Assembly (NCBI GenBank): GCA_044892525.1
Contig: CM097885.1
Coordinates: 16,246,001-16,310,000, forward strand
Source: Schmidtea polychroa
Taxonomy: Eukaryota
Direction: 5' to 3'
DNA: 64,000 nucleotides
The notes beneath the pieces are model-generated. The model was not told the DNA's origin and searched no databases. It worked only from the letters and a program-made list of their open reading frames with translations. The translations under genes and the position numbers were made by a program. Shown in pieces: positions 19,294 to 53,777 of this stretch (the first letter of the stretch is position 1; each line of letters starts with the position of its first letter).

Positions 19294-19354
19294 ACAATGG
19301 GTGCTAATCCTTCATTGCCCGTAATTAAATTTAATTTTAAATCTTCTTGTTGTA

Positions 19355-19741
19355 ATGGAGAAGATTTGGACGAACCCAGAAGACGAAGCAGGTTTCGACG
19401 GAGTGGCAAAATTAAAGAAAAGAGTTCCGAATTCAAAAAAAGAAAGCCAGAAGTGGTTATCAGATCAGCTTGCGTACAGTTTGAACAAACCAATGCAAAA
19501 ACGATTCCCAACAAGAGCATATAAAACATATGGAATAAACGATTTATGGCAAATGAATTTGAAGGAGATGATACCATATTCGAAAATTAACAATGGTTAT
19601 AAATATATTTAACATGTATTGATGTATTTAGTCGGTTTGGCCGATCGATTACAGTCAAGGCAAAATCTGCAGATGAAATGTCCAAAGCTGTTAATAATTT
19701 ATTTAAAAAAGGACATCCTAATAACTTGCAAACAGATTTAG

Positions 19742-19785
<44 letters not shown>

Positions 19786-20417
19786 TTAGGTAAAGGATTC
19801 TACAATAGCAAAGTTAAGCAAATCCTCGATAAACTGAAAATAAATCACTACTCGGTACATTCTCAATACAAACGTCCCATGTTGAAAGATTTAATCGAAC
19901 ATTGAGATATAGATTAAAGAAATTGTTCGTGCATCAAGGTAATAAAAAATGGGTAAATGCTTTACCAAAAATAATAACCAGTTATAATCATTCATCACAT
20001 CGAGGTCTGAATGGATTGAGACCAGTTGATATTACATCAAAAACATCATTGACTTCTAAGAAATCTGTAAAAATTGCAAAACCTAAATATAAAGTCGGTG
20101 ACCATGTTAGAATTAGTAAAATTAGTGCATCACCATTTATTAAAGATTTTGATACAAATTGGAGTGATAAAGTCTTTGTAATTTCAAAAATAAATACTAA
20201 AGAGAATCCTGTAATGTATGTCATCAAAGATGATGATAATAATATTGTACAAGGGAAATTTTATGAGCAGGAATTACAAGTTATTCCTCCCCCAAAAGTA
20301 TTTAGAATTCAAAAAATATTGAAAACTAAAAAGGTCGGCAAGGATAAACAATACTATGTCAGATGGCATGGTTATCAAAACCCGTCATGGATATCAGCAA
20401 AAGACCTAGTAAAGTGA
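19355..20417 (+). pseudogene. Polinton C retroviral-like integrase with C-terminal chromodomain
   Basis: LWQMNL (first D replaced by N), IDVFSR, LQTDLG/KGFYN, PKYKVGDHVRI, YYVRWHGY..SWI; two frameshifts. Confidence 0.85.
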
Positions 20418-21662: not shown

Positions 21663-22595
21663 ATCACATCTGAGGTTAGTTTTTTTTTCAACATAAAATA
21701 ATATTAAAAATTTGAAAATAATATTGAAAATAGTGTGGGTATCTTATATTTATAAAGTACTTGTATATTTTATTTTATTTATTTTATTTTATTTTATTTT
21801 TTTATTAATTAATTATTTTTTAAACATAAATATGAAAAAAAAAATATTGAAACGGGTGATGGTGGCGAACCGGTAATTATCGCCACCTGTCTTTCGAACA
21901 CCCCCGGATCGATCCCGGTAATGTGCACATTTATTTCTCAGTTGTTTTCGGACCTCTTTCGGATTCGCTTTCGAATTCATTTGTACTTTCGAGCAGCACA
22001 CTTAAAACGCCGTTGAAATCGACTTCGTGAGCGAGAAGCGAATAATAAGGCGTGCTGCTATTATCGGATTGATTCTGATGTATGAGTCTGGCCAGCTTGT
22101 ATATTGGAAGAGATTTGATAAACGAAAGAGGTTGATAAATAAAAAAAAAAATTATCCGGATCAAAAAAAAACTGTTGAGGGGACAGTGAAAAAAAAAAAA
22201 AAAAATACCACTGTCCCCTCAGAGCAGTTTTACTATTTTCATAAAATTTTTTATTTTTAAAACTTACAAAACCTTAAGGTGATCAGGCGACCTAGATCAT
22301 TATGAATTAGGTAATCTGATATTCTTATAACATTAAATCCTTAAGACCAAGTAGTGAGGAATCTATGCACCCCGTTACCTTTTCTCGGAATTACTAATCT
22401 ATAAATACATCTATTCCGAACTTTTTTACTTTTAAGGGAAGAAATTAAGGGTTAATGGCAATAGGGGACAAAGTTTAAAAGTTAAAAAAAGTGAAGAATA
22501 TGGGGTAAAAAAGCATATAAATGTGGAAAATATGGGTCAATAGCGCTGTTTTTTTTTAGGGTGGGGGTGCTGGGGTGCATAGATTCCTCACTACT
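21663..22595 (-). mobile_element. Left-arm remnant of Polinton B
   Basis: Reverse complement of 58786-59718; ends ..CCTCACTACT followed by CCCCTC. Confidence 0.9.
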
Positions 22596-25500: not shown

Positions 25501-27430
25501 CTTCGAAATCTGGTTACTTCCACCTAAATGACCACCAACCAATTAAACTATATAATGAGATTATTCCAAAAGTAGATGACTCAAACTTCTACAGATACCT
25601 AGGAGTAAACTTTGCCTATAAGAAAAGACACAACATTGATGAAAGACTTGAACTCGCTATTAATGATACCGAAAAAATCCTAAACTCACATCTTCACCCA
25701 TCTCAGAAGATTAATGCCTTCAAGATATTCATACACTCTCGATTGATCTTTCCTTTCCGTAATTGTGAAATTCTCCATAAAATACTAGACTCTCATAAGG
25801 ATACCATCATAAAAGATCGTGTCCCCCAAAAAGGTTTTGACAATAAGATAAGAAAAATGATAAAAACCTCTCTGGGGGATAAACTCTTGCAATTTAACAA
25901 CAACTTCCTATACGCCTCTATAAAAATGGGCGGAATTGGTCTTACCGCTGCAATTGACGAATATATCATACAAAGCATAGTACACCTCTCACGTGCTCTA
26001 AACTCATCAGATCTCACCTTTCGTAATCTTGTCCTCTCAGAACTTGCGTTAGCACGTGGCCAAGGCAACCTCGAAGCTGCAATATAGTGGATTAATGGTA
26101 ACATCTCTAAATCCTTTCCAACTCATTCCATCTTCTCGGAATTCAGGAAATCTGTCGATCTGCTTCGTAGGAAATATGGGATACATGCAAAAATCGTACT
26201 TATGGAAGACCTATACCAACTTGAAATCAAATATAAAGAGAGAATTAATTACTTTAATGAACATAACATGAAGGACATCTCCTCTGAACTACATTGCATC
26301 ATCGGTTTTATACATGCAGAAAAATGGACGATCTTAACATGTCAGGGTCATATTGCCAAATCCATCACTGATAGCAGCACTGCTGACTTCCTCCTCAAAT
26401 CTGATACACTTAGTGACGCCCAATACTTCTTCCTTGTTAGGGCTCGCAACAACCTGCTGAAGTTAAATTTCACACCTCATCGACTGTAAAGTAAAAAATC
26501 TATCCTCTGTAGGCAATGCAACTCACACCCCGAAACACAGGCCCACATATTCAACCATTGCCCTGCGAAAATTAATGCGCGCAGAAATAAGCACTCCCGT
26601 GTCCTTGAAGCGGTATGTGAATGTCTCTCTAATTATAACTTTCACTTAGACATTGAAATTTCACCTCAGGGTGTAAATACAACTCTTAAACCTGACATTC
26701 TCATAAAATCCTCTAGAAATAAAGACATTCATCTACTCGACATAAAAGTCCCCTACGAACAAAAAGAAAACTTTAAAACTGCAGTTAAAAATAACTATAT
26801 TAAATACGCTAACCTGGCCATAGATATTGAGAAATCATACAAAACCAAAACTACTATCTCAGCCTTGGTAATCGGTACTCTGGGATCCTGGGATAGTAAC
26901 AATAACCAGGTACTTAAAAAAATAGGCCTCACGAAACAAGAAATTATAGGTCTAGCTCGGAAAGCCTGCACGGCTGCCGTCATAAGTAGCTACCATATCT
27001 TAAGAGAACACACCCTCAAAGACTAATATTTTTATTTATACATATTTGTACTCAACGCATTGATTACTATCTATATTGTACATTATGGCTATATTATATT
27101 CATATTAAACTATCTTCCTAAGTATTACACTCAATAATTAATTAATATCTATCATAGAAAATCCTCCTTGGGCGTCGACACATCCTTTATTATATACTAT
27201 TATAAACTTATTATTAAAAGTACTTATATGGTAACAATATTGTACATTATGGCTCTATTATATTATTAAATAAATAAACCAATGATAAATTAATATATAC
27301 TTATAAAATAAAATTACAATAGCATTGTTGAACCTCTAACTTAATTCTCATCTCAACTTGTGACTTTCCTATCTTAAAATCATCATAAAACACAAAACTC
27401 CACTACTATATTAATATGCTAGTATAAACA
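22596..27430 (+). mobile_element. NeSL-like RLE non-LTR retrotransposon (Zn fingers, Ulp1-like domain, RT, CCHC, PD-D/ExK endonuclease), copy 1
   Basis: One frame 23043-27026 with only in-frame stops at 23766, 26085 and 26487; YADD, CRQC..ETQAHIFNHC, KPDIL..LDIKVPYE, IGTLGSW. Confidence 0.9.
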
Positions 27431-27498
27431 TTATTCTATGTTATTATTATCTATATTATTGTTATCATTATTATTATTATTATTATTGTTAATATTAC

Positions 27499-27586
<88 letters not shown>

Positions 27587-27619
27587 ATTATTATTATTAT
27601 TACTCTTAATTATTATTAA

Positions 27620-27694
<75 letters not shown>

Positions 27695-27764
27695 TATTTT
27701 TATTATTATTACTACTATTATCATTATTATTATTACTCTTAATATTACTATTTGTTACTGTTGC

Positions 27765-27824
<60 letters not shown>

Positions 27825-27860
27825 TATTATTATTATTATTATTAATATTATTATTATTAC

Positions 27861-27927
<67 letters not shown>

Positions 27928-27950
27928 ATTACTACTATTATTATTATACA
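27430..27950. repeat. (ATT)n microsatellite tract
   Basis: Directly visible; source of the poly-I/L/N/Y ORFs. Confidence 0.98.
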
Positions 27951-28260
27951 TATCATCATTTATAATTACGGTACTACCTGTCAATCACCGAATGGGTTAA
28001 TGTAGGAACCCTTGTAGGGGTTCTGCCTATTTGGTGGTCTTTTTAGTTGTTCATATTAATACTATAATCATTTGTACTATACTATCTCTACTATAATCAA
28101 AAAAAAACATGTTCTCCCCTTCGGCTGGAAGCCAAGAAGATTTTACTAAAATAAAATTTGATTTTTTTTTTTTTTTTTTACAATTATTATTATTATGATG
28201 CTGATGATGATGATGATGATGATTAGCAACGGTAATAGCAACACATTGGTATCACCCCTC

Positions 28261-28547
28261 AGTAGTGGGGATATATCCCTAACGACCACAGGCCTCCCAC
28301 TGTTTTCATGTTTTATGGCCATTTTACCCCCAAAAACGTACAAAAAAACACTAAAAACCCTTAAAAACCTATATCTTTTAATTTCTTTATTCTGAAGACA
28401 TTTTGGTTTCAAAATAAAGACTTAAAAAAAAACAACAAAAATATTAAAAAAACAACAAAAATATTAATAAAACGGGGAAAAAAATACTGATAAAACTATG
28501 AAAAACGTTTGTCGGCTTGCGGTCGTTAGGGATATAAACACACTACT
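28261..28547 (+). repeat. Left terminal module of A, itself bounded by inverted repeats
   Basis: Ends in gcggtcgttagggatataaacacactact, an inverted copy of the terminus. Confidence 0.9.
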
Positions 28548-28740
28548 TGAGGATGTCAACTAGCAAGTTGCTATTTGACTAATTTATAATTTTATAAATC
28601 TTAATCTTGAAGAATAAAAAATTTTATGAAAATAGTAAAACTGCTCTGAGAGGACAGTGGTATTTTTTTTTTTTTTTTTTTTTCACTGTCCTCTCAACAG
28701 TTTTTTTTGATCCGGATCATTTTTTTTTTTTTTTATTTCA

Positions 28741-29038
28741 ACCTCTTTCGTTTATCAAATCTCTTCCAATATACAAGCTGGCCAGACTTATATATCAGAA
28801 TCAATTCGATAATAGCAGCACACCTTATTATTCGCTTCTCGCTCACGAAGTCGATTTCATCGGCGTTTTAAGTGTGCTGCTCGAAAGTACAAATGAATTC
28901 GAAAGCGAATCCGAAAGAGGTCCGAAAACAACCAAGAAATAAATGTGCACATTATAGAATCGATCCGGGGGTGTTCGAAAGACTGGTGGCGATAATTACC
29001 GGTTCGCCACCATCACCCGTTTCAATATTTTTTTTTTC
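28741..29038 (+). ncRNA. Candidate structured non-coding RNA or ssDNA element in Polinton A left arm
   Basis: Several long-range helices, GAAA loops, terminal T-run; conserved in B at 59249-59546; strand is inferred. Confidence 0.45.
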
Positions 29039-29170
29039 ATATTTATGTTTAAAAATTAATTAATTAATAAATAAATAAATAAAATAAACAAGATTTATTT
29101 CCTAAGATACCCACACCATTTTTCAATATTATTTTCAAATTTTTAATATTATTTTATGTTGAAAAAAAAA

Positions 29171-29245
29171 CTAACCTCAGACGTGATTTGAACCGCTAGC
29201 ATTTGAACCACTGTGCCAGTCTATTCCCACTGCGCTATCGGAGTT
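29171..29245 (-). ncRNA. tRNA-like Pol III unit A1
   Basis: Minus strand A-box TAGCGCAGTGG, B-box GGTTCAAATC, T9 terminator. Confidence 0.65.
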
Positions 29246-29414
29246 CGGATTTTTGTCATTTTTTAAATTTTTAATTAATAAAAAAATAAAATAAAATAAA
29301 TAAAATAAAATAAAAATAAATAAAAATAAATAAAATAAAATATTAATCTAAGATACCCACACCATTTTCAATATTATTTTCAAATTTTTAATATTATTTT
29401 ATGTTAAAAAAAAA

Positions 29415-29489
29415 CTAACCGTAGTTAGGATTTGAACCGCTATCCATTTGAACCACTGTGCCAGTCTAGCCCACTGCGCTATCGGAGTT
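29415..29489 (-). ncRNA. tRNA-like Pol III unit A2 (tandem duplicate of A1)
   Basis: A-box TAGCGCAGTGG, B-box GGTTCAAATCC, T9 terminator. Confidence 0.65.
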
Positions 29490-29525
29490 CGGATTTTTAT
29501 CATTTTTTAAATTTTTATTATAAAA

Positions 29526-30821
29526 ATGAATAATATAAATCTTAAAATTCAAGAAAAAAATAAATTAAATCTTGATTATAATAAAGAATTTACTCATGAA
29601 ATTAAAAAAAATGATATTTTAAAAATATCCCCAACTTCAGGATCTATTGCAAACTTAAATCGTAGGGGTGATATAGTTTTTCAATCTCTTCAAACATCAA
29701 ACCCAATAGATATTTGTAATGCCAAATTATATTATAAAATCGAATTAGAAATTGAAGCAAACAAAGATATAACCCTAGAAAATAATTTCTTTCCAAATTT
29801 ATTCTCCAACATGAGATTAAAACTAGGATCATCAGAAATTGAAACTGTTTTGCACCCAGGAGTATATTCTACAATGTTAAATTTTATTTTAACTGGTTGT
29901 GATTATAAAAACGAATATGGTGAATTAACAGGTTGGATTCCTGATGTTAATAAAGGAGATTTAGATAAAGATGGTTTAGATGTAAACCATGGTTACTATA
30001 AAAGAGCTGAACTTTATAAGTTGAAAAAATTTGAAGGTTATTTTGAATTAAAACACTTGTTCGGATTCCTTCAAAACTATAACCGGGTGCTCCATAATGT
30101 TTTTATAGAATTAGTTTGTAATAGAGTAGAAGGTGATAAAAGATTGTTCTATGGAGCTGCAGATACAAAAGCTAAATTAAAATTATCAACACTTGAATTG
30201 CATATACCTGAATGGACATTAAATCCACATTCTGAGATTAAACTCCTTGAAAGATTAAATTCCAACAAATCTATAAATGTAAATTATTTAAATAGAATCT
30301 GTAGTGAATTTAGTATGACAGAGGGTTCAACATATTCTATAAAGGTAGCAAATTTAGCATACCGACCAAGATATATCTTGATTGGATTCAAAGAAGTAGA
30401 TTCATCTTTCCAAAAAAATAACAATCTATTTATTCAAAAGATTGGAGATGATAATTTAAAAACAATCCAAATTCAATTAAATAGTTCTTATTATCCAATA
30501 AATAGAATGGAATTTAATATTGAAAATAATGAAAACATATTCCCATATCTAAATTATATTGAAACATGTTATTATTTCAAAGTTGAACCGCAATTAAGTT
30601 TAGAAGATTTCAAAAATTTATATTCTATATTTTGTATAAATGTATCAGACCAAGATGATCGCCTAGCTATAAATAATGTTGATGTTACACTTCATGTAAC
30701 AAAGGATTCTAATTTTAAAGCTAAAGTATATACATTAATATTAGAAGAAAAGAAAATAGAAATGAAATTATATGGTGGAAAGATTTCAATTATTGAAAAT
30801 GTTAAGGGAGATTCTTCATAA
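29526..30821 (+). CDS. Major capsid protein (double jelly-roll, Polinton PY)
   Basis: 431 aa; LENNFFPNLFSNMRLKLG..IE, RPRYILIGF, IFCINVS motifs; genomic context. Confidence 0.85.
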   Translation: MNNINLKIQEKNKLNLDYNKEFTHEIKKNDILKISPTSGSIANLNRRGDIVFQSLQTSNPIDICNAKLYYKIELEIEANKDITLENNFFPNLFSNMRLKLGSSEIETVLHPGVYSTMLNFILTGCDYKNEYGELTGWIPDVNKGDLDKDGLDVNHGYYKRAELYKLKKFEGYFELKHLFGFLQNYNRVLHNVFIELVCNRVEGDKRLFYGAADTKAKLKLSTLELHIPEWTLNPHSEIKLLERLNSNKSINVNYLNRICSEFSMTEGSTYSIKVANLAYRPRYILIGFKEVDSSFQKNNNLFIQKIGDDNLKTIQIQLNSSYYPINRMEFNIENNENIFPYLNYIETCYYFKVEPQLSLEDFKNLYSIFCINVSDQDDRLAINNVDVTLHVTKDSNFKAKVYTLILEEKKIEMKLYGGKISIIENVKGDSS

Positions 30822-30850
30822 GTAGATTCCCCCATAAAAAAACTTTTAAA

Positions 30851-32263
30851 ATGAGTAAATATTGGACATGTGAAAGTTGTAATTGTCAAGTTACAAGACA
30901 TCACAAAGCAAGTCATCTCAAAACTAAAAAACATACGAGAGTTGATATTACAGGAGGCGACCTACAATCTTCAAAAACAACATCTACAATATTAAAACCT
31001 TTTACTACAGAAAAATATCCAGGTGAAAGACATTTATTCCGTCACAATTATACTGGGCCAGGAACAAGATTAGATATTAGATTAGATGAAAATAATAATC
31101 CTAAACAAGGAGAAGAACCAATAAATAGAATTGATCAAGCAGCTTTAAAACATGACATTGCTTACAACTCTGAAGATCTTAGAGATAGACATGTTGCTGA
31201 TGTGAATTTAATACATGATTTAAATAATATACAAAATCCATCAAGCAAGGAAAAGATTCAAAGAGCTCTAGTTAAATTAGCAATGAAAGGTAAGATTTTC
31301 ATAGGCTTAGGACACAGTCCGATCACCATGGGTGCAAGATTTCCTAGGAAAGCAAAAGATGTTGCTAATAAAAAGATTATCGAACAAGCAGAGATTGAAA
31401 GATCCCTCGAGAGTACAGCTAAGACTAGTTTACAAACCCCAACAGAATCAGAAATAAAATATGCTAATGAATTACACCATGAATTTAGAAAAAATAAAAA
31501 ATATTTAAAAGTTCAAGTACATGAAAAAGATCAAACATGGTCTGCAGATTTAGTCTTTATGCCAACCAAATCATCAGACCCTGAAAAATATAAAATAATT
31601 TTAACAGTAATAGATTTATATACAAGATTTGCTTTTGCAAGGTGTTTAGAAAATAAAACAGGATATTCTATTACAGAAGCATTTGAAAATATATTTGAAG
31701 AACATCAAAGAATTCCAAAATATTTATGGTGTGATAAAGGAACAGAATTTTATAACAAAGTTTTTACAAAGTTTTTAAATGAAAATGATATTAAATTATA
31801 TTCAACAGAAAACGAAGGAAAAGCAGTCGTAGTTGAAAGATTAAATAGAACATTAAAAAATAAAATGTGGAAATATTTTACTGCTATTGGAAAACAAAAA
31901 TGGAACAATGAATTGTTACAAAAGATTGTAAATGAATATAATAATGATGTACATAGTTCTATAAAATCAACACCTTTAAATGCTTCCATGAAGCCTGAAA
32001 CCATTAAAGTGGTAAATATTGAAAATGATGTTATTGTTGATACAACCCCTATAAAACCAAAGTTTAAAATTGGTGACCGAGTAAGAATATTTAAATATAA
32101 AAATAAATTTGAAAAAGGATTCACAGCAAAATGGACAAATGAAATTTTTATTATAAATAAAATACATTATACAACTCCAATAACATATAGCATCATTGAT
32201 TTAAATAATGAAAAAATATTAGGTAGATTTTATAATAATGAACTACAGAAAACAGATTTTTAA
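30851..32263 (+). CDS. Zn finger + parvovirus-type PLA2 domain fused to a retroviral-like DDE integrase
   Basis: CESC..HLKTKKH; NYTGPG..DQAALKHDIAY..RHVAD; WSADL, WCDKGTEF, VERLNRTLK. Confidence 0.92.
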   Translation: MSKYWTCESCNCQVTRHHKASHLKTKKHTRVDITGGDLQSSKTTSTILKPFTTEKYPGERHLFRHNYTGPGTRLDIRLDENNNPKQGEEPINRIDQAALKHDIAYNSEDLRDRHVADVNLIHDLNNIQNPSSKEKIQRALVKLAMKGKIFIGLGHSPITMGARFPRKAKDVANKKIIEQAEIERSLESTAKTSLQTPTESEIKYANELHHEFRKNKKYLKVQVHEKDQTWSADLVFMPTKSSDPEKYKIILTVIDLYTRFAFARCLENKTGYSITEAFENIFEEHQRIPKYLWCDKGTEFYNKVFTKFLNENDIKLYSTENEGKAVVVERLNRTLKNKMWKYFTAIGKQKWNNELLQKIVNEYNNDVHSSIKSTPLNASMKPETIKVVNIENDVIVDTTPIKPKFKIGDRVRIFKYKNKFEKGFTAKWTNEIFIINKIHYTTPITYSIIDLNNEKILGRFYNNELQKTDF

Positions 32264-32274
32264 GTCGACAAGCC

Positions 32275-33054
32275 CTAAAACAAACTTTTCCATATTTCAG
32301 CTTCTTCTCTATCCAAATAAATATAATTATATTTTTCTTTCCAATGATTATCAACAAACATATCAAACATATTCTTATCAGGTTCAACATTTGAAAATAA
32401 ATCATTATAAATCATATTCTTATCACGCTTGTCTAATTTAAAAAATATAAAACAATTAGAATTATTTCTTATAGAGTTTTTATCTAAAGCATAATATGTT
32501 TGAGATATATAAATAACATTACAATTATTATGTCGACCTCGTGTAAAGTAACTCTTTTGAATCTCTTGATTTTTCATATTAACAACATCATCAAATATAA
32601 CTAGATTCTTTTTATCTTTAGGAAGTAAATCACAATGTAAAACATCTTCAGGTTTATTAGAGAATAAGATCTGGATTCCATCCCCTATATAATCATTTTT
32701 ATTACTAATATCTGATTCTAAAATCTTTTCCTTGTACCAATCAACCATATCACAAGGATGAAAAACCTCTTCGGGATATGTATGTTGATTTTTAAAAATA
32801 TCAATTATAGCTTTTTTAGTTAATTTATTTTCAAATCCACATTTCAAAAGTTGTAATTCCGGTTGGTTAATGGTTGTAGAATAAAAGATTAAATTATTAT
32901 AATCCAAAAATCCATCTTCTAATAACATTCTCATAAGAAGAACATTCTTTCCACATCCAGAAGATCCAATAATTAAGCATCTAAAATTATCAGGAAATAC
33001 TTTAATATTAAATTTAGATTTATGTCTATTTAAAATTGGTTTCCAAGTATCCAT
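32275..33054 (-). CDS. FtsK/A32-like DNA packaging ATPase
   Basis: Walker A GSSGCGKN, Walker B VIFDD, RGRHNN. Confidence 0.93.
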   Translation of the reverse strand: MDTWKPILNRHKSKFNIKVFPDNFRCLIIGSSGCGKNVLLMRMLLEDGFLDYNNLIFYSTTINQPELQLLKCGFENKLTKKAIIDIFKNQHTYPEEVFHPCDMVDWYKEKILESDISNKNDYIGDGIQILFSNKPEDVLHCDLLPKDKKNLVIFDDVVNMKNQEIQKSYFTRGRHNNCNVIYISQTYYALDKNSIRNNSNCFIFFKLDKRDKNMIYNDLFSNVEPDKNMFDMFVDNHWKEKYNYIYLDREEAEIWKSLF

Positions 33055-33070
33055 TTTTATTTATTATAAA

Positions 33071-33586
33071 ATGACAACACAAAACCCTACAGAGGAATCT
33101 TTGCAAGAATTAATAAATTCAAATAAAAATAAATCAGTAGTAATCTCTGGTAAAAAATATTTTATTGGAAAACATGTAAAAGAACAAGTTGAAGAAAAAC
33201 TAAAGGAAGGAGGGATTCTTCCTCTGGCGGCTTTAATACCTGCAATCATTGCCGGACTATCAGGTGCTGCTGGAATAGCTGGAGGAATTGCAACTACAGT
33301 TCAAAAAGCTAAAGAATCTCAAAAGACAGACCTAGAAAAAGAAAAACTACAAACTGAAATCGAGAAAATGAAGGGAGGGAAAGGTCTTTATCTTGATCCT
33401 TATAAAGGTCGTGGTTTAAATGATTTTTTAAAAAATCAAATTTCTACATCTGAATCTTTATCTTCAAAAGATAAAGATGATTTAAAAAAAATATGTAAAT
33501 CTTTAAAAAATGGATGTCTTTGTAAAATTAAAAATGGTAAAGGTTTATACTTGAAACCCTTTCCAACGGATCCTTTACCAAAATGA
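33071..33586 (+). CDS. Putative virion core or membrane-active protein with adenovirus pX-like segment
   Basis: GGILPLAALIPAIIAG and repeated GKGLYLxP. Confidence 0.6.
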   Translation: MTTQNPTEESLQELINSNKNKSVVISGKKYFIGKHVKEQVEEKLKEGGILPLAALIPAIIAGLSGAAGIAGGIATTVQKAKESQKTDLEKEKLQTEIEKMKGGKGLYLDPYKGRGLNDFLKNQISTSESLSSKDKDDLKKICKSLKNGCLCKIKNGKGLYLKPFPTDPLPK

Positions 33587-33608
33587 TACCATTTTTAATA
33601 CCATTAAA

Positions 33609-34406
33609 ATGGTATATGAAGAAAGATTAGCACTTTTAAAAGAATTACAATCAGAACAAGATAAATATAATAAAAAAGATACAACTCAACACGCTGAATC
33701 TATAATATTAAATGAGGTAATCCAACAACAACAAGGACCAACAATTAAAGCCATAAAAGAGTTAGAAGTTTTAAAATTTAAAGAGTTGGAAGATAAACAA
33801 GATTTAAAAGAATTACCATGGTTGGAAGATTTAAATATAAAACCTCTTATACTTGATCCTAAAATTAATGTGAGTTTAAGTAAAACAATTAAACCTACAT
33901 TTAATATTAATGTTGAAGGATATCAAATAATAACAATTAATAAACATGACTTTCTGTTATATTTATATTCAGAAAATAAATCACGTATTCATTCACAAAA
34001 TGTTTATAATACTAAACACCTAGATTTTGAATTTACAGATGATTTTTATGGATTAGTTTGTGGATATCCCTCAGAGAATGTTGATCTTCTAGAAATTAAA
34101 AAATATTTAAATTTAATAGAATTAGTACATGGTAGTGCTAAAGCAAAACATATTCAAGATTTAAAGAAATATTTAAATAAAAATGAAAGGGGTTATATTG
34201 TCACAGAAGGAGAGGGCCAGGGTCAGGGCCAGGGAAAGGGTAAGGAGATAAACCCAATCAATCTTTTTATTGAATTAAGAAAACTATTAGCAGCTAAAAA
34301 AGCAGGACATAATAATTTAGATTCTGATATTTTAAAGATTTCTAAAGAATTATTAAAACAAGGAATAATTTCAAAAGATAAATTTAATAAATATACGAAG
34401 TTATAA
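33609..34406 (+). CDS. Polinton protein of unknown function
   Basis: 265-aa intact ORF, GxG repeat, C-terminal LLAAKKAGHNN..ELLKQGII. Confidence 0.7.
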   Translation: MVYEERLALLKELQSEQDKYNKKDTTQHAESIILNEVIQQQQGPTIKAIKELEVLKFKELEDKQDLKELPWLEDLNIKPLILDPKINVSLSKTIKPTFNINVEGYQIITINKHDFLLYLYSENKSRIHSQNVYNTKHLDFEFTDDFYGLVCGYPSENVDLLEIKKYLNLIELVHGSAKAKHIQDLKKYLNKNERGYIVTEGEGQGQGQGKGKEINPINLFIELRKLLAAKKAGHNNLDSDILKISKELLKQGIISKDKFNKYTKL

Positions 34407-34428
34407 ATACGAAGTTATAAAATATAAA

Positions 34429-34860
34429 ATGACTCCTTCAATATTAGATTTTTTAAAAACATTTGGAATAAATACAAAAACAAATTTTGATTTAAAAGAT
34501 TATGCAGATTATTTAAATTTAAAAATAAAAATATTAATGAATGATGAATTGTCGAGTCTGAAAGAAGACACTCCAAAGAATATCATTATAAATTATCAAA
34601 ATTCAAATGAAAAAGGATCTCATTGGGTTTTTATATATAATAAATCTATATACTTTGATTCTTTTGGGATTAAACCCACTAAAGAAGTTGAAGACTATCT
34701 CTCGGACTACACTTTTAATTCATTACAAGTTCAACCTAATAATACTAAAATATGTGGTATTTTAAGCTTATATGTTTTGTATAGATTGAATAAATCCAAA
34801 GGAGAAGGTTTCACTTCCTTAATCCAAGAAATTTATAATGATTTAAAATCTATACTATGA
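34429..34860 (+). CDS. Adenain-like cysteine protease
   Basis: GSHWV, YFDSFG, QVQ..ICG (His-Asp-Cys triad). Confidence 0.92.
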   Translation: MTPSILDFLKTFGINTKTNFDLKDYADYLNLKIKILMNDELSSLKEDTPKNIIINYQNSNEKGSHWVFIYNKSIYFDSFGIKPTKEVEDYLSDYTFNSLQVQPNNTKICGILSLYVLYRLNKSKGEGFTSLIQEIYNDLKSIL

Positions 34861-35627
34861 AAATGGAGCTTCGCAACCTTCCGGAAGATAATTTAAAAAA
34901 AATGGTAAACATAATGTCAGATAAATATTCAAGAACTTTATCTATAAATTCAAAAGAATCAGACTTTACTATAAACTTTCAAGATTCAATTAAATTAGAT
35001 CAAAATTTAAATTATGAATTAGGACTATTATGGTTTTGTGCTTATAATACTATTTTTAATATAACTAAAGATAATAACATATTTTATTATATAAGCCCAA
35101 AATCTACAGATAAGATTATAATAACAATCGAACCCGGAGCTTATGAGATAAAAGATTTAAATAATATACTTTCTAAAAAAACAAATGGAGTCATTAAAAT
35201 TAAAATGGATTTACCAACTTCAAAATGTATAATGACTTTAGAGAATATAGGAATTCATTTTCAAAATAATAGTTTCTTTAGAACAATTTTAGGATTTACA
35301 CGAAACCATTATATCACACCTGTAGTTGAGAATATAACATCAGAAAATATTATAAAAATAATAAATACAAACACAATAAATATTCATTGCGATTGTATAA
35401 CAGGTTCTTATAATAATGGTAAACAAACAAATGTTTTATATTCCTTTCCCTCAAACACAGTTCCTATGGGATATAAAATAGTTGAAAGAATGAATCCTCC
35501 AAATTATTTACCTTTATGTAGAAAATATATAATGGATATTAATTTTAAAATTCTTAATCAAGAAGGAGAATTGATTGATTTTAATGGAGAAGAGATTTCA
35601 ATGTATTTACATTTGAAACAGGTTTGA
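34857..35627 (+). CDS. Minor capsid protein (penton, PX)
   Basis: IEPGAYEI, NIHCDCITGSY.NG...VLYSF, IDFNGE. Confidence 0.85.
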   Translation: MKMELRNLPEDNLKKMVNIMSDKYSRTLSINSKESDFTINFQDSIKLDQNLNYELGLLWFCAYNTIFNITKDNNIFYYISPKSTDKIIITIEPGAYEIKDLNNILSKKTNGVIKIKMDLPTSKCIMTLENIGIHFQNNSFFRTILGFTRNHYITPVVENITSENIIKIINTNTINIHCDCITGSYNNGKQTNVLYSFPSNTVPMGYKIVERMNPPNYLPLCRKYIMDINFKILNQEGELIDFNGEEISMYLHLKQV

Positions 35628-35664
35628 ATACGAAGTTCCACATGTCATTTTAAATTATTAATAA

Positions 35665-36675
35665 ATGAGTTCTTATATTCCATGTAATAGAGGTGGTGGA
35701 ACAATAAAAACAGGGTTTAATACAGAAGAAATATTAACTTTAACAGAAAATAAATATATTAATGAAAGAGGTGATTCAATGAAGGGTGATTTAATTTTAA
35801 ATGGACACAAGATAAAAGAATTATCTTTTCCAACTGATGAAGCTGATGCAGTTAATAAGAAATATGTTGATGGTGTTAAAAATTATACTGATTTAACAAC
35901 AACAAGAATTGAAAGTTCATTAACAACAAAAATGGATTCAATGGAATCAAAGCTTAATAATATCGAACAACGATTTAATGATAAATTTGACAAGTTACAA
36001 AGTCTGTTAACTGAACAAGTTGTAAAGTTAAATACTAGCATATTAAATTCTAAAGATAAACAAATTATGAATACTAAATTTAATACAATATATAATATAA
36101 TAAATGAGATGATTACATCATTTAATAAAAGAATTTCAAATTTAGAGTCTCATGGAACACACATTAACACCACACATAGTATTAGAAAAAGAGCTGCTGA
36201 ATTAGAACAGAATAAAACATTATTACCCCATACATATAAACATTTTATAGAACCAAGTTTAATAACAACAAACAGTAAAGAATGGGGTGTTTTTATGGTT
36301 GTAAAGATTATTGATCCTTATTTCTTTTTGTTTGATGATGATAATGAAAGAATGAAATGGTTTGTGAAATGTGATTATAATAGTAAGCTTGAAAAGGGTG
36401 ATGTTATAATGACTAGTTATGATTTACCACACGGAGATTGGTATGTTAATACTCATTCACATGGACTACATAAAGTTAAAAGTAAGAATATTATTTTTAA
36501 AAGCACACTTGTACAATATATAGGTTTAATATTTTATGAAAAAAAGGTTGATGTTGATGAAGTTCGTAAAGCATTGAGAGAATTGTATAAAGATATCCTC
36601 TCAACAAGAGTTTCTTTTGATATCCGAGTATTGGTGACAGATGGTGCTCAGAAGAATAAAGTCTTATTTTTTTAA
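35665..36675 (+). CDS. Putative fibre/spike protein
   Basis: GDLILNGHKI..PTDEADAVNKKYVD tail-fibre-like motif, coiled coil, C-terminal globular part. Confidence 0.55.
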   Translation: MSSYIPCNRGGGTIKTGFNTEEILTLTENKYINERGDSMKGDLILNGHKIKELSFPTDEADAVNKKYVDGVKNYTDLTTTRIESSLTTKMDSMESKLNNIEQRFNDKFDKLQSLLTEQVVKLNTSILNSKDKQIMNTKFNTIYNIINEMITSFNKRISNLESHGTHINTTHSIRKRAAELEQNKTLLPHTYKHFIEPSLITTNSKEWGVFMVVKIIDPYFFLFDDDNERMKWFVKCDYNSKLEKGDVIMTSYDLPHGDWYVNTHSHGLHKVKSKNIIFKSTLVQYIGLIFYEKKVDVDEVRKALRELYKDILSTRVSFDIRVLVTDGAQKNKVLFF

Positions 36676-36683
36676 TTATTAAA

Positions 36684-37305
36684 ATGGACAAAGTCCAAAA
36701 GATGGAAGAAGTAAGAGAAGAAAAAAATTTATCCAGAGCTCCCTCCAGAATTGAGATCATCAGGATATTATTTTTCCAAGGCCTCGGCTCCCACAGAACT
36801 TGAAATTATGAGAGTAAAAGAATTTAAATCAGAAACCTTACATTTACAAGATTTATTAAAGCATTATAAAAAAATTAAAAATAGATGGAATAAAGGGAAT
36901 ACAGTTTTAAAAGTTATAGGTTATTCTTTAGGATTTGCATCTGCAATATTAACAGTTATTTTACCCATAACTTTACCAGTTGTTACTCTTGCACCTGTAA
37001 TACTTGGAAGTATTTCTGTAGCTGATGGTTTCTTAACTGAAATAGTTTCATTATCTTATACTTCTAAAAAGAAAAGTTTATATAGAGAAGTTTGTTTATC
37101 AATAGAATTAGGAATCTCTAAATTATTTTTATTTCAATTAAAAGCTTTGGAAGATGGAATCTTAACTGATGATGAAATAATGAAATCAAATCAAATAATA
37201 CAAGATATTAAAAATAATATTAATAGATTAAAAAGTGCTAATGTTATAAGTAATGAATATTCTAAAAAAATTAAACGAGAGAAGTGGCTAAAGAATCATA
37301 CATAA
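36684..37305 (+). CDS. Hydrophobic-hairpin Polinton protein (gasderminX-like); likely start 36684 with a 1-nt frameshift in the A7 run at 36721
   Basis: Two hydrophobic segments and KALEDGILTDDE; removing one A joins MDKVQK.. to IYPELP.. Confidence 0.6.
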
Positions 37306-37378
37306 AAAAATTTTTTGCCCTTCAAAAGGTTGATGTTGTCACTCTTAAATTAATTGTTGACATTTTTAAAAAAAAAAA

Positions 37379-40300
37379 TCATTTGATAGAATCTGATGTT
37401 AACTTTTCGAAATTAGTTTTTAGAACCTCTTTATGATCTTTAAATTCTTTATCACTTAGACCTTTTATATATTCAGGATCAGTATTAAAATATTTAAGTT
37501 CTAAAGATATAGGATTAAAAACTTGAGAATATAAAGGTCTGTCAATTCTTGGGGGATAAATGATCTCAACTCTATAAATATCAAGATCAGTAAGATTTAA
37601 ATCATAGACTTCATTTATTTTATCAAGACTTTTTATTATAGGGATTAAATCATTTCCTATAGGTAGTGTTGTTTTCATATCAGACAAGATGAATCTTTTG
37701 TCATCATAATTTGATAATGATACTTTTTGGGATTCTATCAAGTAGATATCATGCTTTTCACTTTTAAGTTGATGTACTTCATCAATTTTATCTTTATGAC
37801 CTGGATTCAATGTGTCTTTATAATCTTGATGAGAAAGTTTCCTGGCTACACATCTCTGAATTCCTTTACATCTGTTATCCTTTACAGGTTTCTCGGCTTC
37901 CAGTCCTCCCGGGAATATAGGATATCTATGTGTAATGCTTTCTTCTGTATCTGGGGTTTTAAATATAAATGTATGCTCTTCAAATTTAGGTTTTGTAAAT
38001 GTTTCGTATGAATATTGTTTAGCACGAATAAATATTCCATTTTCTATTGGGGTATTTGGTTTTTCATCTTTAAATGAAAATAACTCTCCAGATGAATTTA
38101 TTAAATTTGAAAGTATAGGATTTTCAGATATATCCCTTTCAAGGTCCTCAGTTCTTATTGTTAAAAACATTGAATCTGTATCCATTGCATGCATTGCTAT
38201 ATTAGGACCATATATAGGATGTAAGACATTATAATATGTTTCATACATTTGCAATTTTGAAAGTTCTAAAATTGCAAAGCCTATAAATATTGGTTTATTA
38301 TATGTTTTCTCAAAATTCTGTAGTTCTACTGCAGTAAGATTTTCAGAAAATACTTGTGCGTTTTTAAATGTAGGCTTTCCTAGCATACGATTATAACGGG
38401 CTACATCTTTTTCACTATTTGTCAAGAGTTCTATATTAGTATACTTGTCCACATTCTCCATTGTTTTCCCAAAGACTGAATTGTTTAAAAGTTTATAACC
38501 ATTGTCTTTTAAAAGGTTACCTTCTCTTTTTGCAATGTTTCTACAACGGATGTTCTCCTCGATGAAAGTCTTCATGAATGCTGCTTGTTTAAATCTTATG
38601 ACACTATGAACTTTTTTTAATATCATTCCTTGTGAAAGATAAAACTGTAGGAGTCTATAGTGACAAAGATAATAAGTTCGATCTGTTTGATCACAAAGAA
38701 GTTTCACTGTTGGAGGTTTATCTTGTGAGATTTGCCAGGATGAAAGTTCTTGGACATTAATCTTTCTTCTTATAGGAGCTAGAGGGAAATGTCTTGTTCC
38801 TGATTTTATATCACCTGGGTAATCGAGGTCACATTCTATAAAGTATCCTATTGGAGAATCTTTAGGGGTTGAACGTATTTCTTTTATAAGGTCTTTTAGG
38901 GTGGAACTCTGTATGGATTCTTCTTCTTCTTCTTCAGAGGAGGAGTATATCTCACGAAAGTCACTCATTGGTAAATACTGAGTCATAATTCCTGAATATA
39001 AAGCTGTTGCATCTATATAAAGTATAAATAGAGGATTTTTCATTCCTTCTAATACTTCTTTTAGTTCCTCATCGTTAAGTTTTATATATGGATCATCAGA
39101 GAGCATTCGGCTAGTAGTTATTGCATTTCTAGCTTTTATTTCTCTATTCCCCATTACTGAGGATACTCCTCCTCTAATGTTTGTTTTAATTAAATTAAAC
39201 ATGTCTTGCTCGGTTAAAAGATCTATAATTTTATCAGATTCTGGAAGATCTGAAGTCCAAATGGTATATAACATAGTATCCCAAGCTAAAGAAGGAGCTG
39301 TTATATAATTATAAGGTTTTAGGACAAAAGACTTTGTAAACTCTTCAAAGCAATCTGCCAGAATGTAAACATCTAAGGATAAGTACATACTTGTATATTC
39401 TCCTAAAGTTTTACAGTCGAACAGGTGAAACATTTTCTGAGCTCGGGAATATTCAGTGTCTGTAATCCCAGATTTTGAAAGTAGTGAATAAAAGTACTCT
39501 TTCTCTGGTAATTTTGTTTCCTTATATTTTTCAAAGGAGTCAACGTAGTCATAGGGATATATTCCCTTCGCCAAGCATGCGGAATATTCTTCTGCTGGTA
39601 TATTATTTTTTTCCAAGAACTCCCGAGTGATTTTAAAATCTTCTAGCTTTAATGTTTTTGCTATGCCATCTAAAGACATTTGGAGAAAGTTTAAGGAATC
39701 TATAAATTTTAATTTCCCATATTCAAGTGATTTATATTTTTCCTTTGTTAAGCCAATAACCTTGAAAGAGTTTTTGGCATTTGCTGCTAGATGCTTTATA
39801 AATAGATGTACGTCATAACCAAAAAGATTATGAAATATAACTGGTACAAATTTAGGAGTATGACAATTAAGATTGCAATCTCTATGGGCTGCTCCTCGAT
39901 AATTATTTTCACTTTTTAAATGATCGTGATCTATAACCTTATCATTAGTTGGGATCTCTTGTTTGCACATCCAACAGTTGAATGTATTTTTATATTCTTC
40001 TAATTGTTGATCTGAAATATTTTGAGGATACTTTGTTTTTAATGCTTCAAATATTTCATGTTCTAGATCATTTATACTTGTAGTAAAATGATCCAAGACA
40101 TCTTCTGAAGTTCCTTGAAATGCATATTCTCTAGATTCTATGACTTCGGGATAATTACTTTTAAATAATAATTTATAAGCAGATGGTAATTGTTTAGTTT
40201 TTTTAACACTATTGGGTTTATTATTTTTTCTTAGAAAGGCCTTCAACCTTGTTGGTTTCTCCTTCTGTTTAGAGGCTTTCCATTCATCCATGAGTTTATA

Positions 40301-41722
40301 TTTTTCTATTATTTTTAAATATTGCTTGACTAGATCTTGTTTATGATTTATAGATTCAAAGTCTCCGTAAATTACTCCTAATGTTTGTAATAAATTTGAA
40401 AAGTTTTTAAAATACATCCTGGGATCTGTAGGCATTCTAATTAAAGCTGGTGAATCCTTTTCACAAAATCTTGCATGCTTAATCATGGAGTTTTCAGTTG
40501 TTGAATAATGAAGACATCTTTTACACATTCCTCCTCCACTAGTTGGATTCTCTGGAGATGTAAAAGCTTGAAAGTTTTTTATTAAAATATAATGTTGATT
40601 ATTTTCATGTTCCAAGATTAAAAGATATATCTCCCTCGTGCTATCGCTTCCCTGTATTTCATAATCAGAAATATAAATTGGAATAATATCTCTGCATCCA
40701 CGTCCCCATCCTTTAACATGTTCATAAATATTAAGTTTAAGATTATTTAGTTTTTCAAATTCTGGAATGTCTTCTAGTTTCATTGGATGCATGAATCCTC
40801 CTGGGAATATTAATTCATTTTCATATTCTTTGTATTTTGAAACTCTTTGGGGGTTTTCGGTTTGAGGATGTAAATGTGCAAGTATTGACCACATGAAACC
40901 TTTGTTATCCTTATTCTGCACATTTATAACATTTTTAGATTTAAAGGGTGTAGGAATATAGGATTTAGGATTAGGTGGTAATCCCCTCCAATAATCAATC
41001 ACTAAAGATTGGAAGGAATGAAATACTAAGTTTGAATCTCCTAATTCATTTTCAATCTCTTCTTGTTTTGCTTCGACTGCTTGAATTATTTCTTTGATGC
41101 TTTTATTAAATCCTCTAGTTGAAAATAAATATTTAAAAGGCATTGGGATTTCAACATCTAAAGGAATTGTGTCTTCTTGTCCTTGGCTTTGCGCTCTCCA
41201 ATATTTTGCTTTTATTGTGATTTTATATTTTATAACATTATACCTTGTCGGTTTATAATTTTTTAAAGCCTCACAGAAAGAATCTTTTATATTTTTTTTA
41301 TTTCTCTTTATATATTCTCCAGGGGTTGCAGGTCCATTAATTTTTAATTTAAATTCATCTATATGATTAAAATTATCCCAGTTGTATTTTTCTCTTTCAA
41401 CATGATCAGGTTCTCCTTCTGAATAACATTCCTCATCCTCGGGATTTTCTTTTATATGTTCTTTTAAATGTTTTAAATAGTAGAAATTTATTTTTGTTGA
41501 AAAGTTACAATGAGGGCATGTAAATACTTCTCTAAGTCTCCCGATACAATTTTCAAAATGTTTATTATATCCTGAATGTAGATATCTTCCTTTACATTTA
41601 GGACAGAGTTTTGAATTTGTGTCATTAAGATTATTTTCTTTTAGTAAGTGAGCCTTCGACTTACAGTGGGAAATTAATCCTGTTTTATTTTTAAAAACTT
41701 TATTGCAAATATTAGAGTTCAT
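37379..41722 (-). CDS. Protein-primed family B DNA polymerase with N-terminal Zn fingers and an endonuclease VII-like insert
   Basis: YGDFES, CWMC..DHDH..RGAAHRDCN, FHNLFGYD, KLLNNSVFGKTMEN, DTDS, YDDKR. Confidence 0.95.
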   Translation of the reverse strand: MNSNICNKVFKNKTGLISHCKSKAHLLKENNLNDTNSKLCPKCKGRYLHSGYNKHFENCIGRLREVFTCPHCNFSTKINFYYLKHLKEHIKENPEDEECYSEGEPDHVEREKYNWDNFNHIDEFKLKINGPATPGEYIKRNKKNIKDSFCEALKNYKPTRYNVIKYKITIKAKYWRAQSQGQEDTIPLDVEIPMPFKYLFSTRGFNKSIKEIIQAVEAKQEEIENELGDSNLVFHSFQSLVIDYWRGLPPNPKSYIPTPFKSKNVINVQNKDNKGFMWSILAHLHPQTENPQRVSKYKEYENELIFPGGFMHPMKLEDIPEFEKLNNLKLNIYEHVKGWGRGCRDIIPIYISDYEIQGSDSTREIYLLILEHENNQHYILIKNFQAFTSPENPTSGGGMCKRCLHYSTTENSMIKHARFCEKDSPALIRMPTDPRMYFKNFSNLLQTLGVIYGDFESINHKQDLVKQYLKIIEKYKLMDEWKASKQKEKPTRLKAFLRKNNKPNSVKKTKQLPSAYKLLFKSNYPEVIESREYAFQGTSEDVLDHFTTSINDLEHEIFEALKTKYPQNISDQQLEEYKNTFNCWMCKQEIPTNDKVIDHDHLKSENNYRGAAHRDCNLNCHTPKFVPVIFHNLFGYDVHLFIKHLAANAKNSFKVIGLTKEKYKSLEYGKLKFIDSLNFLQMSLDGIAKTLKLEDFKITREFLEKNNIPAEEYSACLAKGIYPYDYVDSFEKYKETKLPEKEYFYSLLSKSGITDTEYSRAQKMFHLFDCKTLGEYTSMYLSLDVYILADCFEEFTKSFVLKPYNYITAPSLAWDTMLYTIWTSDLPESDKIIDLLTEQDMFNLIKTNIRGGVSSVMGNREIKARNAITTSRMLSDDPYIKLNDEELKEVLEGMKNPLFILYIDATALYSGIMTQYLPMSDFREIYSSSEEEEEESIQSSTLKDLIKEIRSTPKDSPIGYFIECDLDYPGDIKSGTRHFPLAPIRRKINVQELSSWQISQDKPPTVKLLCDQTDRTYYLCHYRLLQFYLSQGMILKKVHSVIRFKQAAFMKTFIEENIRCRNIAKREGNLLKDNGYKLLNNSVFGKTMENVDKYTNIELLTNSEKDVARYNRMLGKPTFKNAQVFSENLTAVELQNFEKTYNKPIFIGFAILELSKLQMYETYYNVLHPIYGPNIAMHAMDTDSMFLTIRTEDLERDISENPILSNLINSSGELFSFKDEKPNTPIENGIFIRAKQYSYETFTKPKFEEHTFIFKTPDTEESITHRYPIFPGGLEAEKPVKDNRCKGIQRCVARKLSHQDYKDTLNPGHKDKIDEVHQLKSEKHDIYLIESQKVSLSNYDDKRFILSDMKTTLPIGNDLIPIIKSLDKINEVYDLNLTDLDIYRVEIIYPPRIDRPLYSQVFNPISLELKYFNTDPEYIKGLSDKEFKDHKEVLKTNFEKLTSDSIK

Positions 41723-41793
41723 TTTTAGAATAAATTTTTTTACTGGATCCTATGTTTTCTATTTTTCTATTTTTATTTTTCTATTTTTTTATT

Positions 41794-41899
41794 CACCAGT
41801 ATTGTATTCACCAAGACCTGGATTCACCAAGACCTGTAGCACCAAGACATGTAGCACCAAGACCTGTAGCACCAGTATTGTATTCACCAAGACCTATAG
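41794..41899. repeat. 15/16-bp tandem repeat (CACCAAGACCTGTAG) x7 upstream of pPolB
   Basis: Directly visible. Confidence 0.9.
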
Positions 41900-41907
41900 T
41901 TCCTCCG

Positions 41908-42150
41908 AGTAGTGGGGATATATCCCTCACGACCGCAGGCCGATATACGTTTTTCATAGCTTTATAGCCATTTTTCTCCGTTTTGTAGGCTTAAATCCAT
42001 ATTTTTTAAATTTTGCGAAATAGAGCAAAATAAAAAATGTGCGTTTTTAAGGGTTTTTAGTGTTTTTTTGTACGTTTTTTGGGGTAAAATAGCCATAAAA
42101 CATGAAAACAGTGGGAGGCCTGTGGTCGTGAGGGATATATCCCCACTACT
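41908..42150 (-). repeat. Right terminal module of A, itself bounded by inverted repeats
   Basis: agtagtggggatatatccctcacgacc at 41908 and its reverse complement ending at 42150. Confidence 0.92.
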
Positions 42151-43399
42151 CCCCTCACTGGTATGGACAGCAGCGCCTTATAGCACTGGGATATATTTAC
42201 ACCATCATTTAGCAGCGGTACGTGTACATATATATGTATCTATGCTCCTCCCTGGTTACCATGATATTATCATTATTATTAGTAATTATATACATTTTTA
42301 ATTGAACTAAATAGAATTTTAATATTTTTGATTTGTACTGTTTTTATTGCCCTTTCTATATATTATTATTATTATTATTATTATCACATTTTGTGTCGGT
42401 GATACACAATTCTATTGGATGATGCGATTGGATCTGTACAAATGCCGCGTATATTTTAAACGATTATATAAGTTTACAATTTGTAAATAAACGTTTCTTC
42501 TGTATTTTTTGATTTTTGTTGGTTTTAGATTTTATTAATGTTTGCCTGACAGTCACACGAGTTACATGAAACAGGCTGTTATGTTTATGAAATCAATGTA
42601 CTTTACAGGAATTATATAATTAATATGGAGGAGTTACCGATTCTCTGACTTATTCCTATCCGGTTTATTGCCAAAGTTTCACGTAACGGGTGTTGAATGG
42701 TAAAGCTTTTTGGGTTCCTACTACAATACTAAAGTGTAAAATATAGTTTACCTGAAACCTACCATTACTATTATTATTATTCCCACTTTCATAACTATCA
42801 TATTTGTATGATTACGATCAGTGTTATTTAGTCGTTCTATTGTGGCTGTGGTTCCGATTTATATCATAATTGATTTCTGCCATTTATATCTTTATTATAT
42901 TAATAACATCTATATCGCTATTATAATTGTGATGTTGAGAAAATTGCTCTCATCATTAAATAGAGCCGTATATAAAATAGCAATGTTTGCGTGTAAAGCA
43001 AACTTTGTGTATATCGCATTTTTGCATTAAATTTTGAAAAACCGTGGCGCTCTCAAAAGGATCTAAAAATTATATGGCAAAATGTGATCTAGGTGTTTTT
43101 TTAGATTTTCTAGTTAATATTCCTATTTAAAAACCCTAATTTCAAAGCTAAATGTTACATTTAAGAAACTGTCCTACCAGATTGTCGTTGTTTACCATTC
43201 TATGCCTCCAATTCTATAATGGAAACAGAGTAACAATAATGTGATAATTCTTAATTTATCTGATTAATAACGTTTAAAAATAAAGTTCTGATTGCAGCTG
43301 AAAAGAGCTAATTGGGTCATATATATGAATCCTATATTATAGAATGTTGTTTAAATAATGTTTATTTTCTCGCTCATTCAATTCCATTCTCATTACTTT

Positions 43400-53469: not shown

Positions 53470-53533
<64 letters not shown>

Positions 53534-53569
53534 GTAATAATAATAATATTAATAATAATAATAATAATA

Positions 53570-53629
<60 letters not shown>

Positions 53630-53699
53630 GCAACAGTAACAAATAGTAATATTAAGAGTAATAATAATAATGATAATAGTAGTAATAATAATAAAAATA

Positions 53700-53777
<78 letters not shown>

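Follow-up and report, generated by a model that had tools for sequence, protein, structure and literature searches.

Background

In retroviruses the integrase enters the particle on the core protein (Gag/Gag-Pol) and is freed by the viral protease, its amount being often set by a -1 frameshift. Intact Mavericks are characterised by terminal inverted repeats, (AGT)2//(ACT)2 ends and a 6-bp target-site duplication, and at the time of this account no Maverick/Polinton particle had yet been seen, according to the portion available to us (PMC8097293). The Alpha adintovirus integrase typically has a C-terminal chromodomain (Starrett et al. 2021, PMC8502044; Buck et al. 2024, PMC11071296), and these viruses also encode PLA2X, described by Starrett et al. 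2021 (PMC8502044). Mavirus particles contain the integrase along with a cleaved predicted hydrolase, and the mavirus protease cuts GG-X and GX-G / GY-G, the hyphen here and below marking the cut (PMC6048507, in the part at hand).

Two adintovirus genes, in BK066529 and BK066759, are named 'PLA2-Integrase' in the supplement of Buck et al. 2024 (PMC11071296). The accessible portion of the main text of that paper takes up neither this fusion nor how it might be cleaved, nor frameshifting between its two parts; -1 frameshifts are suggested there only for Penton and Hexon-Adenain. The word 'fused' is absent from the main text of Starrett et al. 2021 (PMC8502044), as far as that text was accessible, and no PLA2-integrase fusion was found in the available portions of PMC3671162, PMC5803895, 10.1101/341131 and PMC11131425. 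A literature search covering few subscription journals likewise brought up no text that discusses the fusion or frameshifting between PLA2 and integrase.

Here we analyse a window of 64,000 nucleotides from Schmidtea polychroa (contig CM097885.1 of assembly GCA_044892525.1, positions 16,246,001 to 16,310,000 of the forward strand). A first-pass annotation of this stretch had pointed to one gene joining a phospholipase A2 (PLA2) domain to an integrase. Positions below are those of the window.

An intact-looking Polinton

The gene lies in an intact-looking Polinton (Polinton A, Table 1), which shows the repeats, AGTAGT//ACTACT ends and 6-bp duplication of intact Mavericks and carries the Polinton core genes: protein-primed PolB, rve integrase, packaging ATPase, clan CE protease and double-jelly-roll capsid. 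The 6-bp duplication records a past integration of this element, though the integrase that acted may have been encoded elsewhere, by a different copy. The profile matches of the protease include ASFV S273R (E 1e-8) and adenain (E 1e-6). As to the traits of Alpha adintoviruses, PolB matches PF03175, and an OTU-like region was seen in it by eye only; this region is without the cysteine found at the motif in related PolBs (also by eye).

Table 1. Coordinates of the fused gene, of the element carrying it and of related features in the window
Feature	Position	Strand	Basis
Broken integrase of another Polinton, the third in the window: chromodomain, no PLA2	19325..20417	+	comparison
Target-site duplication, left, CCCCTC	28255..28260	+	
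Polinton A, 13,890 bp, AGTAGT//ACTACT ends	28261..42150	.	
Terminal inverted repeat, left, 124 nt, 94% to right one	28261..28384	+	
Major capsid protein, double jelly roll	29526..30821	+	PF21738 E 5e-28
ZnF-PLA2-integrase fusion ORF	30851..32263	+	single open frame, 470 aa
C2H2-type Zn finger (likely), residues 7-28	30869..30934	+	sequence pattern; optional in relatives
Predicted protease site 1, ITGG-D, residues 33-37	30947..30961	+	GG conserved in relatives
PLA2 domain, residues ~37-153, 13.4 kDa	30959..31309	+	Pfam, fold, alignment
Predicted protease site 2, FIGL-G, residues 150-154, last PLA2 helix end	31298..31312	+	
Linker, variable, residues 154-204, holding Met160 in strong Kozak context	31310..31462	+	
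Integrase catalytic core, D233/D295/E329	31463..32005	+	Pfam, profile, fold
Integrase C-terminal domain, beta-rich; no chromodomain after	32051..32260	+	
Packaging ATPase, A32-type	32275..33054	-	PF04665 E 5e-8
pX-like core protein, separate gene, GG-ILPL motif	33071..33586	+	weak sub-cutoff Adeno_PX match; motif kept in relatives
Conserved Polinton protein without Pfam family	33609..34406	+	
Cysteine protease, adenain-like (clan CE), H65/D77/Q102/C109	34429..34860	+	profile matches
Penton / minor capsid protein (likely)	34857..35627	+	homologues in related loci; name by eye from Adinto6405 set; no Pfam match
DNA polymerase B, protein-primed (Alpha type)	37379..41722	-	PF03175 E 4e-15
Terminal inverted repeat, right	42027..42150	-	
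Target-site duplication, right, CCCCTC	42151..42156	+	
Copy-B fusion, 469 aa	61864..63273	+	one frame, Pfam, alignment

Some further features of the element and its surroundings may be recorded here. At each terminus of Polinton A (28261-28547 and 41908-42150) the terminal sequence recurs internally in inverted orientation, which makes the terminus an imperfect palindrome of ~240-290 bp. Two tandem units ~245 bp apart (29150-29262 and 29395-29506, minus strand) contain motifs resembling the A box and the B box, as well as a T-run; we take them to be possible RNA polymerase III genes, like the adenovirus VA RNAs. They matched no Rfam family and no tRNA in ARAGORN, which found no tRNA gene anywhere in the window, and the four Rfam matches in the left non-coding region are at chance level, far under gathering scores. 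The capsid protein has a GG motif ~12 residues from its C-terminal end (30797-30821) that is common to its two closest relatives (L010 and L025) and absent from distant ones; by analogy with mavirus, it is possibly a maturation site.

Two copies of a non-LTR retroelement (RVT_1; 21663-28017 on the plus and 53380-59718 on the minus strand), each of 6.3 kb, are 99.6% identical. Their first 600 bp match the left non-coding region of the Polinton, and one of them lies to the left of copy B; no left terminal repeat of copy B could be located within the window. A 5' transduction of Polinton sequence by the retroelement is possible. The window also has TRAF-like genes in three similar copies (RING, TRAF zinc finger, MATH; 7576-16246 and 44326-48410), and its ORF at 6293 resembles a proteasome alpha subunit; this gene content suggests an AT-rich animal host.

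Domains and active sites of the fusion

The first-pass description of a single frame with PLA2 and DDE integrase is borne out by Pfam, which places PF08398 at residues 61-141 (37.1 bits, cutoff 23.9) and rve (PF00665) at residues 224-317 (45.7 bits, cutoff 32.6). The PLA2 loop and HD..D residues are intact, as had been claimed: YTGPG (67-71), H101-D102-x-x-Y105 (HDIAY) and A116-D117 can be paired by pattern with B19 VP1u residues Y130/G132/G134, H153/D154/Y157 and A174/D175, where most mutants lose activity (PMC3626588, in the portion available). A change of B19 Y168 also abolishes activity (same source), and the window's PLA2 domain, compared by spacing and not by alignment, has no equivalent Tyr. 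The integrase triad D233/D295/E329 is present too. Conservation was scored in 84 fusion proteins of <80% identity, drawn from 115 of 121 with both ends: 81-82 of the 84 retain the PLA2 residues H101, D102, Y105 and D117, and 83-84 retain the DDE residues. Judged from these residues, the PLA2 domain of the fusion is likely to be an active lipase.

As whole-chain fold searches returned integrases alone, the PLA2 domain was folded separately. With 59 sequences it reached a pLDDT of 85, and its top solved-structure match was rice PLA2 (rmsd 3.4 over 89 residues) at a middling Z of 7.4, the other solved matches being mostly generic helix pairs. Its BFVD matches were mainly parvo/densovirus VP1 and PLA2-like proteins (best E 5e-4). 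These matches agree with a PLA2 fold, if at a middling score. Solved structures searched with the single sequence of the fusion gave no match; a profile search with it gave integrases, plus weak AAV capsid matches at E 0.5. The integrase matches retroviral integrases by profile as well as by fold. There is no Pfam Chromo match in the 470-aa chain, which ends directly after the beta-rich C-terminal domain; the chromodomain had rightly been reported as missing here and present in the third Polinton, where the Chromo match is itself sub-cutoff (21 bits vs 25.1, E 3e-4). The Zn finger survives as a C7-x2-C10...H22...H28 pattern with pLDDT ~70-76, found without a Pfam match, and a similar motif occurs in 16/84 fusion relatives. 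In the whole-chain model the linkers are of low confidence (pTM 0.41), and across fusion relatives the linker ranges from 3 to 250 aa (median ~12 aa), which argues that PLA2 and integrase are independent modules.

The fusion has indeed been retained in copy B, where the frame is unbroken despite in-frame indels and the protein is 95% identical to that of A, with a change at residue 95, a near-invariant PLA2 position. Between A and B, pN/pS is 0.17 for PLA2 and 0.21 for integrase (0.15-0.21 over the three fusion domains), compared with 0.14 for the capsid and 0.16 for the ATPase; the copy B fusion is kept under purifying selection. Synonymous divergence is 0.21 over the Zn finger and PLA2 and only 0.04 over the integrase, which suggests recombination between element copies near the PLA2/integrase junction.

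Distribution of the fusion

The first-pass annotation held that a fusion already common in annotated Polintons would be less novel, and the survey of PLA2 and rve combinations shows this one to be widespread. With the N-terminal 210 residues as query, 20 of 22 matches carry both domains. A profile search with fusions recovered 883 proteins at E <=1e-60 among 8000 candidates scored; 100 of the best 120 carry both Pfam domains (5 also a chromodomain), a proportion that gives no frequency among all Polintons because a profile of fusions ranks fusions first. The PLA2-only query yielded 888 representatives; 20 of the best 150 carry an integrase by integrase profile, and many of the remaining matches are stand-alone or fragments. 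Other partners of PLA2 occur in PLA2X, PLA2X-Adenain and Adintoc3-PLA2X. Scans of IMG/VR and GTDB gave few loci (6, 2, 2, 4, 3), and two pattern matches (L087, L088) were ruled out as relatives, being without a PLA2 or integrase match.

In a quick SH-aLRT tree with midpoint root, from which the order of events is not inferable, the window's gene belongs to a clade of 41 rows (SH-aLRT 100) made up of 36 in-frame rows, 4 unknown and 1 at -1, none of them scored with a chromodomain. The link of the integrase to PLA2 persists across several clades. The idea that PLA2 replaced the N-terminal domain of the integrase was dropped, stand-alone Alpha integrases being without that domain too (two examples). 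The PLA2-integrase fusion is widespread and already labelled in public data, yet unstudied. The window's gene is therefore an added member rather than a new kind.

Shifted junctions among relatives

Ninety-six loci were fetched (4 duplicates removed), 50 of which have the PLA2 end and integrase start <=400 nt apart. The two domains are in frame in 36 of these, at -1 in 12 and at +1 in 2 (L034, L094). A slippery heptamer stands in register at the junction of 10/12 loci at -1, 1/2 at +1 and 2/36 in frame. In none of the ten -1 heptamer loci does the integrase frame offer a Met before the first catalytic Asp; the catalytic motifs themselves are found wherever the contig extends over them. Five of them (L016, L028, L043, L051, L062) combine a short run (A AAA AAC) with a downstream stem, and the broken L073 makes a sixth; the spacer between heptamer and stem is 6-7 nt in four of the five and shorter in L016. 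The other five have no stem: four have longer A-runs, the fifth being L038. Two more loci were dropped as frameshift candidates: L092 has its own Met and a heptamer out of register, and the break in L002 lies past the junction. In the linker DNA of the window's gene no slippery heptamer was seen by eye, and there is a single frame without overlap.

From these arrangements we consider programmed -1 frameshifting at the junction of the shifted relatives quite probable, and more so for the hairpin group. The competing account, in which the split frames reflect homopolymer slippage in defunct copies, errors of assembly or a stuttering polymerase, is a serious though lesser possibility. Every shift sits in an A-run, and the two +1 cases also suit that account. 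So does the subclade formed by L017, L020, L034, L038, L040, L048, L065 and L076, where A-run length varies, in-frame, -1 and +1 states are mixed and five -1 members are without a hairpin; slips or assembly errors are likely in this stemless subclade. For the set as a whole, however, the junction is ~4% of the coding length and has 14 breaks, as against ~34 elsewhere (by-eye count), and 12 of the 14 are at -1. All six short-run sites have a stem at z between -2.2 and -4.7 in one of two window sizes, whereas z <=-2 was reached by 2.5% of 159 control windows, at one window size only. In addition, L028, L043 and L062, which form one clade with integrases 83-86% identical, share the heptamer, a 7-nt spacer and a G-C stem even though their loops differ.

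Programmed frameshifting of this kind would also bear on existing annotations. Adinto13074 is annotated with PLA2 followed by an integrase from a Met beyond the first catalytic Asp (known from the annotation only), and the relatives with shifted or protease-fused integrases suggest that some annotated integrases beginning after this Asp, this one for example, are mis-started. The Oculina patagonica gene model P0264 has PLA2 and integrase joined, with a junction resembling the shifted frame of L073; this model may have bridged a frameshift. The frameshifted relatives of the fusion seem unreported.

Three further loci have the protease in frame with the integrase via a GGG linker (L022:4458-5957, L036:7459-8925, L039:162-1394) and make up one clade (SH-aLRT 100); the label 'adenain-int' was not found in the available part of the Buck et al. 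2024 supplement (PMC11071296). Three kinds of link join the integrase to an upstream virion gene: an in-frame fusion with PLA2 (36/50), a -1 overlap with slippery site (10/50) and an in-frame fusion with the protease (3 loci).

Proposed role and cleavage

We favour, with a little more than even confidence, a reading of the fusion as a virion-core precursor. The chain would be expressed late, next to the capsid gene, and packed into the particle, where the element's own protease would cut it at Gly motifs either side of PLA2 at maturation; the lipase set free in this way would aid exit from the endosome, and the integrase, likewise released, would be delivered along with the genome. In the relatives, -1 ribosomal frameshifting would likely tune this coupling so as to give much free PLA2 and little PLA2-integrase, as in Gag/Gag-Pol. 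The window's element, in a large clade without chromodomain, would represent the in-frame, 1:1, constitutive form.

Of the 70 relatives with enough sequence, 55 have a GG at most 45 aa before the PLA2 domain. At the PLA2 end, G152 is found in 84/84 relatives (by alignment) and GG or GxG in 72/84, and the integrase parts of the same 84 hold 5 GG and 4 GxG in 21,789 residues. Cleavage of the chain at the flanking motifs by the element's protease is plausible on this pattern, with predicted pieces of about 4, 13 and 37 kDa. The P4 residues of relatives are mostly off the adenain consensus of M/I/L (as cited in 10.1101/341131, in the portion available), Lys being commonest. An adenain-type P4 fits site 1 in A only, and not site 1 in B. 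The adenovirus counterpart of the pX-like protein is cut at GG-ILPL. Since the pX-like proteins of relatives also have mixed P4 residues, a relaxed P4 is plausible. The virion polyprotein proposed in the first-pass annotation thus draws support from homology (border Gly motifs, clan CE protease, likeness to mavirus), while its fit to adenain at P4 mostly fails. Other points against the virion-core reading are the missing equivalent of B19 Y168, the middling score of the top solved-structure match and the large number of close PLA2 relatives in which no integrase was seen, although many of these are fragments.

That the chain stays whole, with PLA2 serving to tether it for packaging or to a membrane and with an integrase that works in the fused state, strikes us as unlikely. 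The P4 misfit and the short median linker would suit such a chain, and site 2 may be structural because it closes the last helix and is shared by stand-alone PLA2 and PLA2X proteins, which also end in this motif. Site 1, however, is GG in most relatives in spite of variable upstream sequence, the integrase interior is nearly free of Gly motifs, and a GGG linker is found in the protease-integrase fusions too. Two proteins from one ORF, with the integrase from an internal Met or from a separate or spliced transcript, are improbable: Met160 does have A at -3 and G at +4, and some Alpha integrases start at their own Met right before the ELH motif (PMC11071296, in the accessible part of the supplement), and L092 has such a Met, but the Met160 segment is absent from P0002 (94% identical), just 22/84 relatives have any linker Met, and an integrase begun at the first Met of the ten -1 loci would lack the first catalytic Asp. 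Just as improbable is a tolerated accident (a stop lost between neighbouring genes, PLA2 being inactive or in a non-entry role), which would agree with a PLA2 often stand-alone or with other partners and with the altered near-invariant position in copy B, but sits poorly with an active site conserved in 84 relatives of <80% identity, with purifying selection and with an integrase link maintained in several clades.

Extending the virion-core precursor reading, we tentatively suggest, at slightly under even odds, a broad Polinton branch whose integrase, with no start of its own, is translated as the continuation of a virion protein (PLA2 or the protease, in frame or at -1 with a hairpin) and is released by protease at Gly-Gly. 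If true, a dsDNA virus lineage would have converged on the retroviral solution, which would speak indirectly for the existence of Polinton particles with the integrase on board. A chain of entry enzyme and integrase makes the question of how the integrase reaches a new nucleus testable at the bench, and specialists may be unaware of the relatives with frameshifted or protease-fused integrases.

Comparison with known systems

Adintovirus nemertoderma6405 (BK066529) and sediment15303 (BK066759) have the same PLA2-integrase architecture as the window's gene. By eye, Adinto6405 is also alike in having no chromodomain at the end, a comparable gene set and a separate pX-like gene ('Macc'); it differs in being without a Zn finger and in its very short linker. 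The C-terminal chromodomain typical of Alpha adintoviruses is absent from the integrases of the window's gene and of Adinto6405. PLA2X also has a PLA2 domain of the parvovirus type, bordered by the same motifs, but bears pX at its C-terminus, whereas the PLA2 of the window is joined to an integrase; because the pX-like gene is separate (33071), the window's fusion is not the adintovirus PLA2X with which it had initially been associated. The VP1u PLA2 of parvoviruses and densoviruses (PF08398) shares the YxGxG loop, HDxxY and catalytic Asp, but is an N-terminal extension of the capsid protein and not fused to an integrase; the His-to-Asp spacing is 16 in the window's PLA2 and 22 in B19, and Y168 has no equivalent.

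Mavirus, with its clan CE protease cutting GG-X/GX-G and its packaged integrase and predicted hydrolase, parallels what is proposed for the window's element. It differs in that the MV02 integrase, MV13 hydrolase and MVP protease are separate genes and the hydrolase is of the alpha/beta type, not a PLA2 (PMC6048507, in the part at hand). In Gag/Gag-Pol the core protein and protease are unrelated to those discussed here, and a Polinton is a dsDNA element. By analogy, the Polinton fusion would at most work like Gag/Gag-Pol, without being a member of that system.
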